Source: a virus. Taken from it: a stretch of 64,000 nucleotides of DNA. The position numbers and the translations under genes were made by a program. Location of the stretch: IMG/VR virus record IMGVR_UViG_3300049491_000716, positions 1-64,000 of that record. The stretch is one strand, 5' to 3'. This document shows, piece by piece, positions 49,033-61,962 of this stretch. Below the pieces are notes generated by a model. That model worked only from the letters and a program-made list of their open reading frames with translations, searched no databases and had not been told where the DNA came from. Every line of letters starts with the position of its first letter. Within the stretch, counting starts at the first letter, position 1.

Positions 49033-49634
49033 GCGAAACCTCGGCGGATCTTCACGGTGTCCAAGAAACAGGTGGCGCCCATCGGAATGGTGGTCAACGC
49101 GGCCTGACTTGAAGCCTCGCGATTCTTGTACAGGTGGCCGATCGTCAGCAGCAGCGCCACCTTGATGGACCGCGGCATCGGGTTGTCTTGCGGACTCTCG
49201 CCGGGCGCCGAGTAGCCGACGGCATAGAACACGCGGATGCCGTTGGTCTGCGTGCCGACGTCATCCGGCCACGTGGCATCCGGCGCCAGGATCACGCGCG
49301 CCGGCGTGCTGAAGGTGTCGAGTTGGTAGTCGGCGGCCGGCACCACGAGTTCAAGGCCGTCCTTGTCCAGGTAGGTGATGTAGGCAATGCCGATCACCGG
49401 GCCGTAGGGGAAGGTGATCTCGGCAGGGAAGGCGGTCAGCGCCATCTCGAGCGTGCGGCCGCCGAGCGCGAGCCCGGTGTACTGCTCTGCCCACTCTCGG
49501 GCGGCTGAGATGAACAGCTCCAGTAGCAAGTCGTCGGGGTGCGACGGCGGGCTGCCGAAGGCGTCGATCTTGCACTGCAGCCGCGCTTCTTCGAGCGATA
49601 CAGGCTCGTAAGTCGGGGCGGGCAGATTGCTCAC
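49029..49634 (-). CDS. Head-tail connector (gp6-like)
   Basis: EPVSLEEAR, AAREWAEQYTG, GHLYKNRE. Confidence 0.92.
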   Translation of the reverse strand: MSNLPAPTYEPVSLEEARLQCKIDAFGSPPSHPDDLLLELFISAAREWAEQYTGLALGGRTLEMALTAFPAEITFPYGPVIGIAYITYLDKDGLELVVPAADYQLDTFSTPARVILAPDATWPDDVGTQTNGIRVFYAVGYSAPGESPQDNPMPRSIKVALLLTIGHLYKNREASSQAALTTIPMGATCFLDTVKIRRGFA

Positions 49635-50317
49635 AGGGTTTCCTTCAGCCAGATGTCATCGAACTCGTGTGGCGCCCAGTCCGGGAGGAACGGGCCGCCT
49701 TCTGTGAAGTGCGCGATTTGCGGAACCGCTGGCTTCGGCATCACGCCGACCAGCCAATTCCATTCGTAGGGCAACTCGCCGATTTCGCTGTCGTGTAGCC
49801 AGCAGAACTGGTGCAGGTCGATGCCGCGCGTGTGGTTGATGGCATCCAACGTCAGGCGGCGGTTGCCCGGGTGGCCCACGTTGAACAGCATCACGCTTGA
49901 CCAACCCTTGCGCTCGTAGGGCACCTGAGCCTGGCCATCCATCTTCTCGCCGGCGCGGAAGTCGGCGTAGTGCTTCACAACCTGCACGGCCTTCGTGTAG
50001 TCGGCCAGCGCGAAGAGTTTGGTCACGTCTCCGAGAAAGACGACGTCGCTGTCAACGAACAGCGCGAGGCCGTTCTGCGCGAGGATCGGCGTCAGAAATC
50101 GGCTGATCGCGAAGCCAGTTGAGCATGGCGCGTTGCTTGTCAGGTCGTACATGCTGCCGCGCAGATCGGTCGGGCGGCGCAGCAGGCCGCAGCGCTCCAG
50201 GTTGTCGCGGTTCAGCGGCGTGATGCTCACCGGGGCCTTCGTGCGGCGCAGCATGGACTTCACGGCCACGTCGTAGGCGCGCTGCTCGCGCGGCTCGTGG
50301 CCGATGTAGACGCGCAT
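49631..50317 (-). CDS. GT-A glycosyltransferase (GT8-like)
   Basis: STGFAISRFL, FVDSD (DxD), WSSVMLFN, WNWL, HFTEGGP. Confidence 0.85.
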   Translation of the reverse strand: MRVYIGHEPREQRAYDVAVKSMLRRTKAPVSITPLNRDNLERCGLLRRPTDLRGSMYDLTSNAPCSTGFAISRFLTPILAQNGLALFVDSDVVFLGDVTKLFALADYTKAVQVVKHYADFRAGEKMDGQAQVPYERKGWSSVMLFNVGHPGNRRLTLDAINHTRGIDLHQFCWLHDSEIGELPYEWNWLVGVMPKPAVPQIAHFTEGGPFLPDWAPHEFDDIWLKETL

Positions 50318-50319
50318 GG

Positions 50320-50526
50320 TCAAGACACCTTGCCGTATCGCCATTTCATTTCTTCAAAGGCAGCCTCTGGGTCGCCTCCGCTGTTCAGCCAGACTTCATT
50401 GATTTCTACAGCAGGTGCACCGAACGCCTCGCGGCACTTTGTGTAGAAGGATTTCGCGACCTTAATATTTTCATAGCCGCGGTCCGGCCGGCGAGCAAAG
50501 GCCAATCCAATTTCAGTCAGGCTCAT
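50320..50526 (-). CDS. Hypothetical protein
   Basis: GGGG RBS; in operon. Confidence 0.5.
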   Translation of the reverse strand: MSLTEIGLAFARRPDRGYENIKVAKSFYTKCREAFGAPAVEINEVWLNSGGDPEAAFEEMKWRYGKVS

Positions 50527-50541
50527 GGCGCCCCCTATTGA

Positions 50542-51192
50542 TCAATCGCAGGTCATCAGGTAGTCGCCGCTCATCTCCTTGCGCACCTTGTAGCCCAAGG
50601 ATTGAAGATAGGGAACGGCGTCGGTGTCGCCGATGCCGTAGCGCACGGCGTGGCCCTTCTTCTGTTCGACGCAGATCACCGGCTTGCAGCGTGCGATGGT
50701 TTCCTCGGCGCCGCGGAGCACGAACAGTTCATGGCCTTCGGTGTCGATCTTGATCAGGTCCACTCGGCTCAGCGCGAAGCTGTCCAGCGTGTGCATCGGG
50801 ATGTCGCCGTCGCCGTCCACGCGGCTGTCGCCTGAACTGGTCGGTTCGGTGCGGATGGCAACCATGCCTTCGTGATCACCCAGCGCGCAGGCGTGAAGCG
50901 TGATGTTGTCGCAGGCAAGCGTGTTGGCCAAAAAGCACTCGCGATGCGCAGCCACCGGCTCGAAGGCGTGGACTTCGTCGAACTCGTGCGACAGGTTGAA
51001 TGACCACAGACCCACGTGGCCACCAACGTCGATCGCGACGCGCTTCTGTTTGCAGAGGCCCATCGCAGCCACCTGCTTCTGGCCTTGGTAACTCGCGCGA
51101 CCGTTCAAGTGCATACGCACCTTCGGGTTGGCCATCCAGATGGGGAGGTGGGCTTCGCGATCGGGGAAATACCAGCCGTCAGTCTTCAGCAC
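50542..51192 (-). CDS. FkbM-family methyltransferase
   Basis: IDVGGHVG, AFEP, IKIDTEGHE. Confidence 0.92.
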   Translation of the reverse strand: MLKTDGWYFPDREAHLPIWMANPKVRMHLNGRASYQGQKQVAAMGLCKQKRVAIDVGGHVGLWSFNLSHEFDEVHAFEPVAAHRECFLANTLACDNITLHACALGDHEGMVAIRTEPTSSGDSRVDGDGDIPMHTLDSFALSRVDLIKIDTEGHELFVLRGAEETIARCKPVICVEQKKGHAVRYGIGDTDAVPYLQSLGYKVRKEMSGDYLMTCD

Positions 51193-60124: not shown

Positions 60125-60133
60125 GTCACTCCG

Positions 60134-60709
60134 TTACGGACGCTTGGAGAGCGTGACGATGAGGTCGCGCCATGCGTTGGTGTAGTGGTTCATGGCGAAT
60201 TGTTTGTACTCGGCGTTGCGGACTTCAAGGGACTGATCCCAAGACGCTGCGATCGTGTGGTCGAAGTCGCACGTGAAGCCGGTGTGCGGCGCATTCGCGG
60301 CGCGCCATTCCTTGTGCAGGTAGAGCGGATACCACTGCGACATCGGCGGCCATTGGTGGGTCGGATCGCCGTAGGCGCAGGCATGCGACCAGTTCGGCGT
60401 GATGATCAGGGCCTGCGTGCCGGGCTTCATGACGCGGTACAACTCGTTGAAGAACGACACGCGCTCGGCACCAGTCAGGTGTTCAACGAAGTGGCAACTT
60501 CGGGCTTCGTCGACCGAGTTGTCTTCCAGCCAAGTCAGGCCGTTTCGCACGTCGCGCACATGCTTCTGGCCGAAGTCGATGCTGTCGACGCCTTCCCAGC
60601 CTTCGGGAGTCGTCTTGCCGCAGCCGATGTCAATTCGGACGGCCGCCGCGGGTTCCGGAAGGGTCGGGTCGCTGAGTTCGACCGCGCGCATTACGCTGCC
60701 CTTTGCCAT
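60134..60709 (-). CDS. SAM methyltransferase (type 11-like)
   Basis: IDIGCG, HFVEHL, ELYRVMKPG, DPTH. Confidence 0.88.
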   Translation of the reverse strand: MAKGSVMRAVELSDPTLPEPAAAVRIDIGCGKTTPEGWEGVDSIDFGQKHVRDVRNGLTWLEDNSVDEARSCHFVEHLTGAERVSFFNELYRVMKPGTQALIITPNWSHACAYGDPTHQWPPMSQWYPLYLHKEWRAANAPHTGFTCDFDHTIAASWDQSLEVRNAEYKQFAMNHYTNAWRDLIVTLSKRP

Positions 60710-60764
60710 CTTTCTCTCCTTGGTTCATACACGTTTTTCGTGACCATCGAACTATAATGTTGCG

Positions 60765-61247
60765 ATGGAATGGGGAAGGCATTACAGACACTCAATCGAA
60801 AGCGCCCGCGCTCGATTCATGTCCCGCATTGAAGTTGAACCGTCGGGTTGCTGGCGCTGGATGGGCGCGATCGGAAGCCATAAACGCTATGGGTCTGTTC
60901 ACATCGCCGGCAAGAGCTGGCTTGCGCATCGCGGCGCATGGTTCTTGTTCAAGGGAGATCCTGGCGCCTTGAATGTTTGCCATACCTGCGACAACGGGAT
61001 GTGCGTCAATCCAGATCATCTGTTCCTTGGAACGCAATTGGACAATGTCCATGACATGGAAGCCAAGCAGCGGTCCAAGCATCCTTCTGGCGCGGCTCAC
61101 GGCAGGTCAAAGTTAACTGCGACCGATGTCGAAGACATCCGCCGCTGCTGCACGACAGAGTCCATTCTGTCTATGGCTACCAGATTCAAGGTATCAAAAC
61201 CAACCATAGCCAGAATCGTGAAGGGTGTTGGCTGGGTCACCAAGTAG
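60765..61247 (+). CDS. HNH homing endonuclease with C-terminal HTH
   Basis: CWRW.G, AHR, CHTCDN..CVNPDHL..GT..DN; TATAAT at 60753-60758. Confidence 0.93.
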   Translation: MEWGRHYRHSIESARARFMSRIEVEPSGCWRWMGAIGSHKRYGSVHIAGKSWLAHRGAWFLFKGDPGALNVCHTCDNGMCVNPDHLFLGTQLDNVHDMEAKQRSKHPSGAAHGRSKLTATDVEDIRRCCTTESILSMATRFKVSKPTIARIVKGVGWVTK

Positions 61248-61962
61248 TGTCCGGGGGGCCAAATTTCCCTTCGAGATCAAAGTGTCCAATTTGCACGCCG
61301 CAGTCGATCGCGCAACGATAGCCATGCCGCTGAGCATCGGACCAGAAGTAGAGGTCTTGCGTGGCAATGCCTCCCTCGGTCTGAGTCTTAAACCATGGTC
61401 TTCGTAGGTCGCCATCTTTGAACATGTCAAGGCGCCACAGGTTGAATCCCATGCCGGTTCCCCAGCATTCGACCAACTGGCCGGCAATCGGCGGCTGCGG
61501 ACGGAAATTCATCACGGGGTCGCGACGGTCCCCCCAAATTTGGGCTTGGCCGCCCTCGCCCTTCGTAAAATAAATTCCGCCGATGCAGTCGTATTCTGGG
61601 TGAGCCTCCATCTGCGCAAGCAGTTTGATGAGCCCATCCGGGGGAACGATCGAATCGTGCTCGATCGTCAAGATGTACTTGAACTTCGACAACTCTGGAT
61701 GCGCGAGGATGGCTTCGATGGCGAGAGAGTATGCCTCTCCCACCTCGACGCCAATGGCCCACATGCGATGCAGCGCATTGTTCGGCGGCGAGTAGAGATT
61801 CATCCAACTGGCGACTGCCTTGGTAGGCACCGTGCCGCCGGCTGGGATGATGATGATCGTGTCCAGCTTCTTCCACGCCGACGTCTCTTTGACGCGAGCG
61901 ATGGATGCTTCGAGGTCTGCGTTGTGCTTGCCGTAGTCGACGGCGACGAACTGGGGACGCAT
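61237..61962 (-). CDS. GT-A (GT2-like) glycosyltransferase
   Basis: LTIEHD, GTGMGF.L, QDLYF, IGH. Confidence 0.8.
   Translation of the reverse strand: MRPQFVAVDYGKHNADLEASIARVKETSAWKKLDTIIIIPAGGTVPTKAVASWMNLYSPPNNALHRMWAIGVEVGEAYSLAIEAILAHPELSKFKYILTIEHDSIVPPDGLIKLLAQMEAHPEYDCIGGIYFTKGEGGQAQIWGDRRDPVMNFRPQPPIAGQLVECWGTGMGFNLWRLDMFKDGDLRRPWFKTQTEGGIATQDLYFWSDAQRHGYRCAIDCGVQIGHFDLEGKFGPPDTTW

Follow-up and report, generated by a model that had tools for sequence, protein, structure and literature searches.

Two conserved phage modules of glycosyltransferase-like and methyltransferase genes in the head region of an uncultured siphophage: candidates for virion glycosylation

Layout of the island

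The DNA analysed here (the window) comprises 64,000 nucleotides, positions 1-64,000 of the 80.3-kb uncultured phage record IMGVR_UViG_3300049491_000716, which stems from a PAJU2/D3-like siphophage. The genes for the portal and the head-tail adaptor flank an island for which a sequence-only reading had proposed nine enzyme genes, six of them glycosyltransferase-like and three for methyltransferases: all nine are present on the minus strand, co-oriented with the late genes (Table 1), and no transmembrane segment occurs among the enzymes (maximum KD19 1.68). The translational coupling that had been proposed is borne out by overlaps between the stop of the Maf-like gene and the TTG start of gene 2, between the GT9 and FkbM genes (GTGCTGA) and between the GT8-like gene and the head-tail connector, where the stop shares GTGA with the adaptor start. 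All three methyltransferases pass their Pfam cut-offs, whilst the glycosyltransferase family assignments are solid for four proteins (GT9, Maf-like and the two of KpsC/WbbB fold) and consist of sub-threshold matches only for the GT8-like and GT2-like proteins. Neighbouring proteins described as Thr/Ser-rich indeed contain 20–29% Ser+Thr, which exceeds both the median (9.6%) and the 90th percentile (14.7%) of the background. What had to be abandoned is the notion of one multi-step pathway: instead, the region holds lineage-specific genes and two independent, separately inherited, conserved and phage-specific modules. Each combines soluble enzymes of two kinds, Leloir glycosyltransferases and SAM methyltransferases, and shares the transcription of the late genes. 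The island also reaches past the interval first proposed, with a methyltransferase-MptE fusion at 67168-68610 of the 80.3-kb record, directly after the portal gene.

Table 1. Features of the island and its borders, by position in the window.
Feature	Position	Strand	Evidence or remark
Head-tail adaptor Ad1	49029..49634	-	phrog_442 2.5e-17, phrog_40; downstream boundary of island
Module A gene 7, GT8-like GT-A candidate (phrog_28018)	49631..50344	-	PHROG 3.5e-47
Module A gene 6, FkbM-family methyltransferase	50542..51193	-	Pfam PF05050 1.8e-18, TIGR01444 1e-21
Module A gene 5, GT9 heptosyltransferase-like	51186..51923	-	Pfam PF01075 31.2 bits (cut-off 22)
Module A gene 4, class I SAM methyltransferase	51931..52875	-	Pfam Methyltransf_23/25/11, 4e-9 to 5e-8, above cut-offs
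HNH homing-endonuclease gene, opposite-strand insert within module A	52801..53343	+	Pfam HNH_3 1.5e-16
Module A gene 3, paralogue of gene 2, KpsC/WbbB fold inferred	53300..54058	-	BLASTP 1.5e-12 to gene 2
Module A gene 2 (u271), KpsC/WbbB-fold GT-B enzyme	54055..54870	-	AF2 model, Foldseek 8e-7, VIA Z 12.2 to WbbB/KpsC
Module A gene 1, Maf/GT42-fold (MptE-like) glycosyltransferase	54831..55574	-	phrog_4603 1e-47; fold match to Maf
Post-portal family protein, PKDGxDG and collagen-like repeats	55571..57244	-	BLASTP 2e-12 to PAJU2 gp07; phrog_1289 2e-65
103-aa stand-alone copy of C-terminal domain of 848-aa repeat protein	57258..57569	-	49% identity, 1e-30
848-aa Thr/Ala/Gly/Pro-rich repeat protein	57578..60124	-	~30 units of 22-24 aa; S+T 19.8%
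Module B methyltransferase	60134..60709	-	Pfam Methyltransf_11 24 bits (cut-off 21.2); phrog_6636 1e-8
Second HNH homing-endonuclease gene, between the module B enzyme genes	60765..61247	+	Pfam HNH_3 6.5e-6
Module B GT2-like (GT-A) candidate	61237..61962	-	Pfam 2.8e-4, below cut-off; SpsA 0.076
306-aa Ser/Thr-rich protein, C-terminal Ig-like domain	62012..62932	-	Pfam Ig_3 2.6e-6; phrog_3995 4e-11
124-aa protein, 21% S+T	62932..63306	-	family search, no match
ST369, 369 aa, 29% Ser/Thr	63311..64000	-	gene extends to 64420, past window

The seven-gene cassette of module A

Module A runs in the order Maf-like, two KpsC-fold paralogues, methyltransferase, GT9, FkbM and GT8-like, is collinear in 77 of 78 IMG/VR loci (35–70% identity) and is complete in 36 of the 51 loci long enough for it. 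Gene 3 is present in all 78 loci, gene 4 in 65 and the GT8-like gene in 61; relatives of the inserted HNH gene occur in 13 loci at varied positions. Judged by gene arrangement, module A has been selected as a single unit: it is collinear and translationally coupled, and a fused protein joining KpsC-fold and GT8 parts exists. No constant non-enzyme partner was found among the 78 loci, and its conserved neighbours at other loci are not Ser/Thr-rich. The location in a head module holds for this phage, but not for module A generally: in 24 loci the cassette lies between the portal/post-portal protein and the adaptor, or between the adaptor and head-closure genes, whereas in 33 of the 78 it stands behind genes for DNA polymerase, endonuclease and helicase. 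A quick tree rooted on the paralogue places the head/neck-context sequences at the base and the replication-context sequences in one derived group. PAJU2 and D3 have a form with three genes in their neck module, and in Caulobacter jumbo phages one with six genes follows the genes for tail fibres. These placements next to virion genes, the basal position of the head/neck-context sequences and the depositors' naming of the Maf-like PAJU2 ORF010 as a 'structural protein' speak for a link of module A to the virion. In bacterial genomes the family was found at only 11 loci among 185,579 species, and this near-absence argues against lysogenic conversion.

The AF2 model of the Maf-like protein (pLDDT 92.7) matches Maf (5mu5, Z 15.5; 175 residues superposed at 2.9 Å) and CstII (Z 11.9); its Pfam MptE-like score of 19.2 lies below the cut-off of 34.6. 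On the evidence of this model, the first enzyme of the cassette is closest in fold to a protein (flagellin) O-glycosyltransferase. Such Maf enzymes (Aeromonas Maf1, Magnetospirillum Maf 5mu5) work in the cytoplasm, where they transfer a nonulosonic acid from its CMP-activated form to Ser/Thr residues of a protein that is yet to be assembled (PMC4065374). With 247 aa compared to 632 in Maf, the phage protein is without Maf's flanking domains and retains only the central catalytic domain and a 50-residue N-terminal β-domain. Unlike in Maf systems, Pse/Leg synthesis genes are absent from the phage, so that the donor is probably a different CMP-sugar. A tblastn search against phages returned PAJU2 gp10, D3 orf7 and P1 PmgO (31–42% identity), and putative catalytic His, Asp and Asn residues are invariant across the family. 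These are true homologues, situated in morphogenesis modules with a methyltransferase nearby (PAJU2 gp10-gp12; D3 orf7/orf12/orf13; P1 PmgO), but in three-gene or single-gene versions that do not include KpsC-fold, GT9 or GT8 genes.

Gene 2, which has at least 325 homologues, probably begins with a TTG at ~54835. In its model (pLDDT 93.5) the 15 best matches are all WbbB, KpsC or KrkA (Z 12.2-9.2), clearly above other GT-B enzymes (next 8.1). KpsC (GT107), WbbB (GT99) and KrkA are retaining β-Kdo transferases, and their unusual modified GT-B fold is common to the phage proteins; the two tandem phage modules and the HP motif kept in gene 2 add to the likeness to KpsC. In contrast, the Asp nucleophile of the invariant QXXXD motif is replaced by Gly in gene 2 (QRGVG) and, as read from conserved columns, by Phe in gene 3 (QSAHF), which also lacks the HP motif; the phage proteins are moreover unfused and 250-270 aa long rather than 300-400. 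Since this Asp defines retaining Kdo transferases, the donor is uncertain. A lipid-linked capsule primer is an unlikely acceptor. Across the KpsC-fold family, HP and E81 are invariant and putatively catalytic.

The remaining enzymes are a methyltransferase with a likely ATG start at 52737 and an acidic C-terminal tail (gene 4), the GT9-like protein, the FkbM methyltransferase, for which the true start is the GTG at 51193 and not 51705 (homologues are 213-239 aa long), and the GT8-like candidate. In the GT9-like protein the C-terminal ADP-heptose-binding domain matches WaaC/WaaF (family profile: WaaF 1psw 1.2e-7, WaaC 1.5e-4), whereas the N-terminal acceptor domain is short and unmatched (~245 aa in total versus 320-350) and a Cys cluster (C215, C221, C224; invariant or near-invariant) is missing from WaaF. 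The GT8-like protein scores 18.3 bits with Pfam GT8 (1.9e-3; cut-off 24.3), and its profile aligns with GlyE (5gvv, 0.007) at an invariant D98-x-D100. That some of these proteins work outside a glycan pathway, as Rossmann-fold structural or assembly proteins or by modifying something other than the virion (host flagellin or pilin, for example, or a small molecule), would agree with the depositors' label 'structural protein' for the Maf-like PAJU2 ORF010, the naming of the P1 homologues merely as 'putative morphogenetic', the motif losses in gene 3 and the type IV pilin that is also encoded in the window. However, the invariant putative catalytic residues of the GT8-like, KpsC-fold and Maf-like families and the intact SAM folds of three or four methyltransferases make this quite improbable, as does P1 pmgO, which is non-essential and dispensable for plaque formation (PMC10695390), whilst core structural genes are not; dispensability is what would be expected of an accessory modifier.

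Module B and Ser/Thr-rich virion candidates

The GT2-like family of module B is very large and highly conserved (at least 5125 homologues, 65-82% identity), and in 79 of 80 other loci its gene adjoins that of the methyltransferase. Upstream of the GT2-like gene, a homologue of ST369 (23-30% S+T; at least 443 homologues) is present in 58-69 of these 80 loci, with major head, adaptor and head-closure genes as neighbours; PDB and PHROG searches with ST369 itself gave no match. This constant linkage of both enzymes with a Ser/Thr-rich protein, in a structural-module setting, speaks for protein glycosylation and makes ST369, from its sequence context, the prime candidate acceptor: the GT2-like enzyme and the methyltransferase, demonstrably linked to it, would modify this neighbour.

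Two further candidate acceptors lie nearby. The post-portal protein, whose gene adjoins the Maf-like gene in 16 loci, is likely a fibrous virion protein. The 848-aa repeat protein (period 24/22 with 24 TGxxP cores; TRF periods 72 and 66 nt) gave no match in a family search and is a lineage-specific candidate for both fibre and acceptor. The 306-aa Ig-domain protein (23.9% S+T) is a candidate decoration protein.

Predicted glycan and its acceptors

We consider O-glycosylation of virion proteins from host CMP-Kdo, ADP-heptose and UDP-hexose to be the best explanation of the island, at about an even chance of being correct. For module A, the Maf-type enzyme would work in the cytoplasm and load a CMP-activated ulosonic acid, most simply from host CMP-Kdo, onto Ser/Thr residues of proteins of the virion surface; the two KpsC-fold paralogues would extend the glycan, the GT9 enzyme would add heptose from host ADP-heptose and the GT8-like enzyme hexose, and the sugars would be capped by two methyltransferases. 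This would yield an LPS-inner-core-like methylated coat on fibres, decoration proteins or capsid, which may shield or stabilise the particle; that it mimics surface glycans, as was also suggested, is speculation. The proposal of host donors is consistent with the enzyme assignments, as neither a CMP-sugar synthetase nor another donor-synthesis gene was found in the phage's own record and the folds are of LPS/capsule type, whilst the acceptors are candidates. To our knowledge, protein-linked Kdo has no precedent, and we know of virion glycan coating by phage enzymes only from phages of mycobacteria.

These phages use glycosyltransferases of their own to glycosylate capsid and tail-tube proteins; in the summary of Freeman et al. 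2023 consulted in PMC12363180, the cytoplasmic enzymes of Che8, Corndog and Myrna modify the phages' own capsid/tail proteins and shield the particle. Here, by comparison, the host is Gram-negative, and Maf, KpsC-fold, GT9 and GT8 enzymes take the place of the actinophage glycosyltransferases; module A also differs in its predicted LPS-type sugars, its fixed seven-gene order and its occurrence in several phage lineages. An O-methyltransferase reportedly takes part in virion glycosylation of Corndog.

For five of the six glycosyltransferase-like enzymes (KpsC-fold, GT9, GT8, GT42), the nearest relatives that have been characterised act on lipid-linked glycans, and this, together with the replication-context loci, counts against virion proteins as acceptors. 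Accordingly, Kdo2-lipid A, undecaprenyl-linked O-antigen or a lyso-phosphatidylglycerol primer could serve as acceptors on the inner surface of the host membrane, so that the enzymes would remodel or cap LPS or capsule, or they could drain CMP-Kdo/ADP-heptose, an idea raised for LPS sugars in bioRxiv 10.1101/2023.12.21.572611; superinfection would be blocked, or progeny kept from sticking to debris. The nearest solved relatives belong to capsule and O-antigen (KpsC, WbbB, KrkA), LPS core (WaaF/WaaC) and lipo-oligosaccharide synthesis (CstII), and expression with replication genes would be earlier. Nevertheless, we regard this alternative as unlikely: the enzymes lack a membrane anchor, genes for a flippase or an exporter were not seen, basal lineages carry the cassette inside late operons, its rarity in bacterial genomes does not fit a prophage conversion trait, and new LPS would need time to surface before lysis, whilst module B stays linked to the gene of a Ser/Thr-rich protein and the first enzyme of module A finds its best fold match in a protein glycosyltransferase.

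DNA hypermodification clusters likewise employ phage glycosyltransferases of LPS-type origin with host Kdo, heptose and hexose donors, place Kdo and heptose on 5hmC and lie in some cases near structural genes (bioRxiv 10.1101/2023.12.21.572611), and the DNA polymerase and helicase genes ahead of module A in the replication-context loci would suit such a role. The hallmark of these clusters is a C5-methylase together with a TET-like oxygenase, a pair found neither in the phage's own genome nor in five complete carriers; TET/JBP, C5-methylase, ThyA-like hydroxymethylase and TGT genes were not found in the 80-kb record, nor TET and ThyA-like genes in the five complete (CheckV 100%) genomes, and a base hydroxyl handle is thus absent. 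From gene content, glycosylation of phage DNA by the cassette therefore appears very unlikely; the positive charge of the enzymes is not marked, and the loci with replication genes represent a single derived clade.

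The portal-to-adaptor segment

The source record (80,304 bp, linear, approximately 68% complete according to CheckV) carries all of its late genes on the minus strand. Matches to PHROG and Pfam families place these in the order large terminase, protease-capsid fusion, GIY-YIG gene and portal, followed by some 20 kb of accessory genes, the head-tail adaptor Ad1 and then the head closure, neck, tail terminator, tail tube, chaperone and tape measure genes. The protease-capsid fusion shares 42% identity with its counterpart in Pseudomonas phage PAJU2, in which terminase, capsid, portal, post-portal protein and adaptor follow the same order, and a collagen-like protein of 557 aa is a homologue of PAJU2 post-portal gp07. 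However, portal and adaptor are only ~1 kb apart in PAJU2, which indicates that the glyco-genes sit in a greatly expanded portal-to-adaptor segment. These genes form two groups: module A (Maf-like, two KpsC-fold paralogues, class I methyltransferase, GT9-like, FkbM and GT8-like) and module B (GT2-like and methyltransferase), the latter preceded by a Ser/Thr-rich protein of 369 aa (ST369).

From the sequence alone, a candidate pathway of virion glycosylation and methylation had been proposed at 49631–61962, comprising six GT-like genes and three methyltransferases. All nine ORFs are present and the glyco-genes do lie in this interval, but the segment reaches past it: directly after the portal gene, outside the window, lies a fusion of 480 aa whose N-terminal class I methyltransferase half is akin to an additional methyltransferase (phrog_24759) present in many module A loci, and whose MptE-like domain scores 53.4 bits against PF01973 (Pfam cut-off 34.6). 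The proposed translational coupling is borne out by a stop/TTG start overlap at the end of the Maf-like gene, by GTGCTGA at the GT9-like/FkbM junction and by GTGA where the GT8-like stop meets the adaptor start; likewise, none of the enzymes contains a TM-like segment. In a promoter and terminator scan of 46–64 kb sites were not above shuffles, hence nothing suggests that the island is transcribed as a unit of its own.

The only convincing hairpin on the coding strand between 46 and 64 kb is a strong terminator-like one (8 pairs and a T-run) between the tail-terminator and tail-tube genes. Five genes of the homing-endonuclease type lie in the portal-to-adaptor segment (three of HNH type, two of these HNH_3, plus one GIY-YIG and one resolvase-like endonuclease gene); the glyco-modules are interrupted by two HNH genes of the opposite strand, and related HNH genes occur at varying sites in other cassette loci. 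At the DNA level, a megablast search with the island returned no match among 50,697 phage records. One gene of the early region encodes a type IV pilin (Pfam Pilin 8e-15, N_methyl 2e-8).

Positions of the features discussed; "record" denotes the full 80.3-kb sequence, of which the window is bases 1–64000
Feature	Sequence	Position (strand)	Remark
Helicase-methylase fusion	window	16261-18531 (+)	SNF2/DEAD helicase, N6/N4 DNA methylase
Type IV pilin gene	window	25401-25886 (+)	early region
Terminator-like hairpin	window	47630-47611 (-)	
Head-tail adaptor Ad1	window	49029-49634	
GT8-like	window	49631-50344	module A
FkbM	window	50542-51193	module A
GT9-like	window	51186-51923	module A
KpsC-fold, second paralogue	window	53300-54058	module A, 252 aa
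KpsC-fold, first paralogue	window	54055-54870	module A, 271 aa
Maf-like	window	54831-55574	module A, 247 aa
103-aa gene	window	57258-57569	
848-aa repeat protein	window	57578-60124	
Methyltransferase	window	60134-60709	module B
GT2-like	window	61237-61962	module B
Homing-endonuclease-type genes	window	52801-53343 (+), 60765-61247 (+)	
Homing-endonuclease-type genes	record	65488-66069, 66524-67168, 71079-71873	
phrog_644 protein	record	66088-66522	also in comparison loci L126, L129, L142, L155, L157, L162
Methyltransferase/MptE-like fusion	record	67168-68610	480 aa
Portal	record	69196-70635	
Maf-like ORF010 of PAJU2	L086 (AP009624.1)	7780-8349	labelled 'structural protein'
905-aa gene next to module A	comparison locus L029	8887-11604 (-)	

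Predicted folds and catalytic residues

The Maf-like protein falls into phrog_4603 (1e-47), scores 19.2 bits against the MptE-like family PF01973 (below the gathering cut-off of 34.6) and, like the GT8-like protein, gave only noise in single-sequence PDB searches. The structure nearest to its AlphaFold model (pLDDT 92.7) is the flagellin glycosyltransferase Maf (5mu5; VIA Z 15.5, rmsd 2.9 Å over 175 residues), with further matches to CstII (Z 11.9), archaeal MptE (11.4) and human ST8SiaIII (8.2). The central Maf/GT42 catalytic-domain fold is present; whilst flagellin Maf comprises 632 aa with flanking N- and C-terminal domains, the phage protein lacks these and its model covers only residues 270–511 of 5mu5. 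Maf itself is a cytoplasmic protein O-glycosyltransferase that modifies flagellin prior to export (PMC4065374). In the PAJU2 record the homologue ORF010 bears the same label as the capsid and tail-tube proteins, which suggests that it was detected in virions.

Neither KpsC-fold protein matches a known family, although they are related to each other as paralogues (1.5e-12), and a profile of the family found nothing in the PDB by sequence, so that only the fold search succeeded. β-Kdo transferases (WbbB, KpsC and KrkA; Z 12.2–9.2) take the first 15 places among the fold matches of the first paralogue (pLDDT 93.5), ordinary GT-B enzymes starting at Z 8.1, and the modified GT-B fold of KpsC/WbbB is matched at Z 12.2–11.5 over 220–232 aa. 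For a homologue of this protein, the nearest Pfam-bearing Atlas clusters contain Capsule_synth in 17–18% of their members. The GT99 and GT107 families are defined by the invariant Asp nucleophile of a QXXXD motif, an HP histidine, which protonates the CMP leaving group in β-Kdo transferases, and a Glu base (PMC10148158). With the register taken from sequence rather than from superposition, the QXXXD position reads Q137-R-G-V-G141 with an invariant Gly in the first paralogue and Q119-S-A-H-F123 in the second; the HP motif is 98% conserved in the first (H171-P172) and replaced by W155-S156 in the second, whilst one invariant acidic residue is common to both (E81/D65). The KpsC-fold proteins are thus structural relatives, not mechanistic members, of GT99/GT107, and in this sequence-derived register the known double-displacement chemistry is not usable by them. 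The residue pattern may point to a single-displacement, inverting ulosonic-acid transferase, of which the second paralogue may be a non-catalytic partner.

The GT9-like protein exceeds the PF01075 cut-off (31.2 against 22 bits), and its family profile matches WaaF (1psw, 1.2e-7) and WaaC (2gt1, 1.5e-4) with the GGLxHxAAA stretch aligned. Its C-terminal nucleotide-sugar domain can be aligned to both solved structures, whereas its N-terminus aligns to their acceptor (Kdo-lipid A) domain only over a stretch of -1.9 bits, and the protein is shorter by ~100 aa. Across the phage family C215, C221 and C224 are invariant or nearly so, while WaaF has no cysteines in this stretch; these residues may form a metal-binding finger, as present in TibC-type protein heptosyltransferases. 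The GT8-like protein scores 18.3 bits against PF01501 (cut-off 24.3), and its profile matches GlyE (5gvv) at 0.007, with the invariant D98 and D100 of the DxD metal/nucleotide-sugar motif aligned to the DSD of GlyE. In case of the GT2-like protein, PF00535 and PF13632 are both below cut-off (21.2 against 27 and 19 against 23.3 bits) and the profile found only SpsA (0.076).

Thus, of the six glycosyltransferase calls of the sequence-only reading, GT9-like, Maf-like and KpsC/S-like hold (the latter by fold match for the first paralogue and by paralogy for the second), but GT8-like and GT2-like are weaker and sub-threshold in Pfam. The three methyltransferases all lie above Pfam cut-offs, with FkbM scoring 67.7 bits against PF05050 (22.7) and 78 against TIGR01444 (37.7).

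Conservation and genomic surroundings of the modules

The first KpsC-fold paralogue has at least 325 metagenomic homologues, from whose alignment 77 IMG/VR loci were retrieved and compared by tblastn using all island proteins. Module A is collinear in 77 of 78 loci at 35–70% identity; where there is room for it (51 loci), all seven genes are present in 36 and five or six in a further 14. Selection has kept the cassette genes grouped and in a fixed order. Their surroundings vary: in 24 loci the module has a head/neck context, lying between post-portal protein and adaptor, as in the window, or between adaptor and head closure, and in 33 it has a replication context, downstream of genes for exonuclease, DNA polymerase, endonuclease and helicase, in genomes of ~59 kb with terminal repeats and a polymerase like that of BPP-1-like phages (21 loci were too short to classify). 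In 16 replication-context loci, L029 among them, module A converges on a conserved gene of 905 aa, whose sole match is a weak GNAT-like one (5.5e-4). A quick tree of the KpsC-fold family (60 cassette rows and the window, rooted on five paralogue rows, duplicates and ORFs covering <70% omitted) places the structural-context rows basally and the replication-context rows in one derived group; in the basal lineages the cassette occupies a late-operon position.

Amongst cultured phages, the Caulobacter jumbo phages CcrBL9, CcrSC, CcrColossus and CcrPW carry a version of six genes between the tail-fibre genes and the endolysin, PAJU2 and D3 hold three genes (Maf-like, unknown, methyltransferase) in the neck module and P1 has a lone Maf-like homologue, PmgO. 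PAJU2 gp11 and gp12 were considered as relatives of the KpsC-fold or FkbM proteins, and BLASTP detected no relation. Among 185,579 species genomes of bacteria and archaea the KpsC-fold family occurs at 11 loci, mostly on phage-sized MAG contigs labelled Proteobacteria; because of this near-absence we rejected lysogenic conversion as the main idea.

Module B is built around a larger family: at least 5125 proteins are related to the GT2-like enzyme, the best 120 at 65–82% identity. In 79 of 80 other viral loci the methyltransferase follows the GT2-like gene (median gap 17 nt), and in 58–69 of the 80 an ST369-family ORF precedes it, ranging from 301 to 1282 aa and with 23–30% Ser+Thr in every case. 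Both termini of the ST369 family are conserved, and it has no match in the PDB or PHROGs. Genes for the major head protein, the head-tail adaptor, head closure and virion structural proteins neighbour the module, as does phrog_644, which is likewise present upstream in the sequence studied here; modules A and B occur together, as in the window, only in loci L008 and L099. Proteins of phrog_644 (~140 aa, 27% Ser/Thr in the non-window loci) are found repeatedly upstream of ST369-family proteins and may be part of module B.

The Thr/Ser-rich neighbours noticed at the outset are real: ST369 and the Ig-like, 124-aa and 848-aa repeat proteins contain 20–29% Ser+Thr against a background median of 9.6%. 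The 848-aa protein consists of ~30 units of 22–24 aa, and the 103-aa gene that follows it repeats its C-terminal domain as a separate protein (49% identity); these two and the Ig-like protein are lineage-specific.

The acceptor and its implications

Glycosylation of virion proteins is, in our estimate, an evenly balanced proposition. For module B, protein O-glycosylation is the natural reading, since the Ser/Thr-rich partner is constant inside structural modules. For module A, a protein acceptor is favoured by the nearest structure to the first enzyme being a cytoplasmic protein O-glycosyltransferase, by the ancestral place in head/neck modules, by the PAJU2 depositors' label, by the dispensability of P1 pmgO and by the precedent of mycobacteriophages; against it stand the lack of a constant partner, the replication context of the podophage-like lineage and the fact that relatives of all the other enzymes act on lipid-linked glycans. 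We rejected a universal acceptor deduced from synteny, since the proteins conserved beside module A vary by lineage and are not Ser/Thr-rich. Relatives with lipid-linked acceptors notwithstanding, we consider host lipid or LPS unlikely as the acceptor, and a non-enzymatic role or other targets distinctly unlikely, with part of the probability left unassigned. The enzymes are soluble and of known sugar- and methyl-transfer folds.

The record contains no donor-synthesis gene; host CMP-Kdo, ADP-heptose, UDP-hexose and SAM would supply a methylated oligosaccharide. Taken jointly, we tentatively envisage a phage-specific seven-gene cassette of siphophage, podophage-like and jumbo-phage lineages with Gram-negative hosts, which would place on virion proteins a methylated glycan of ulosonic acid, heptose and hexose, similar to the inner core of LPS; its KpsC-fold enzymes, in which the Asp nucleophile is missing, would represent a novel class of inverting ulosonic-acid transferase, and the Ser/Thr-rich protein, GT-A enzyme and methyltransferase a dedicated substrate-plus-enzyme glycoprotein module, even more abundant than the cassette. 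If true, it would be the first case of a Kdo-type glycan attached to protein.

To our knowledge, virion glycosylation is established for a few actinobacteriophages only, where it blunts antibody recognition, and our literature search found no paper on either module, on the PAJU2 'sialyltransferase' or on Gram-negative virion glycosylation. Phage self-glycosylation as such is known; new are the enzyme set, predicted sugars, host range and two conserved architectures, with the function itself a prediction. Should the cassettes glycosylate Gram-negative phage particles, glycosylated virions would be far commoner than thought, judging by the metagenomic homologues of the two marker proteins (at least 325 for the KpsC-fold one, at least 5125 for the GT2-like one). 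This would bear on adsorption, on host range and, by way of immunogenicity, stability and clearance, on phage therapy; protein glyco-engineering could also use the cassettes as compact toolkits that work in the cytoplasm. The cultured carriers D3, PAJU2, P1 and the four Caulobacter phages make the idea directly testable.

Phage glycosyltransferases of LPS ancestry are able to place Kdo and heptose on 5hmC, which would allow DNA as the acceptor; such glycan-hypermodification nevertheless requires a C5-methylase with a TET-like oxygenase, or a hydroxymethylase (bioRxiv 10.1101/2023.12.21.572611). The record (68% complete) lacks PF00145, PF12851 and PF00303 as well as a TGT gene, and PF12851 (TET) and PF00303 (ThyA-like) are also absent from five complete carrier genomes, so that DNA glycosylation by the cassette appears very improbable. 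The only DNA-modifying enzyme seen in the record is the helicase-methylase fusion (Pfam N6_N4_Mtase 1.6e-16).
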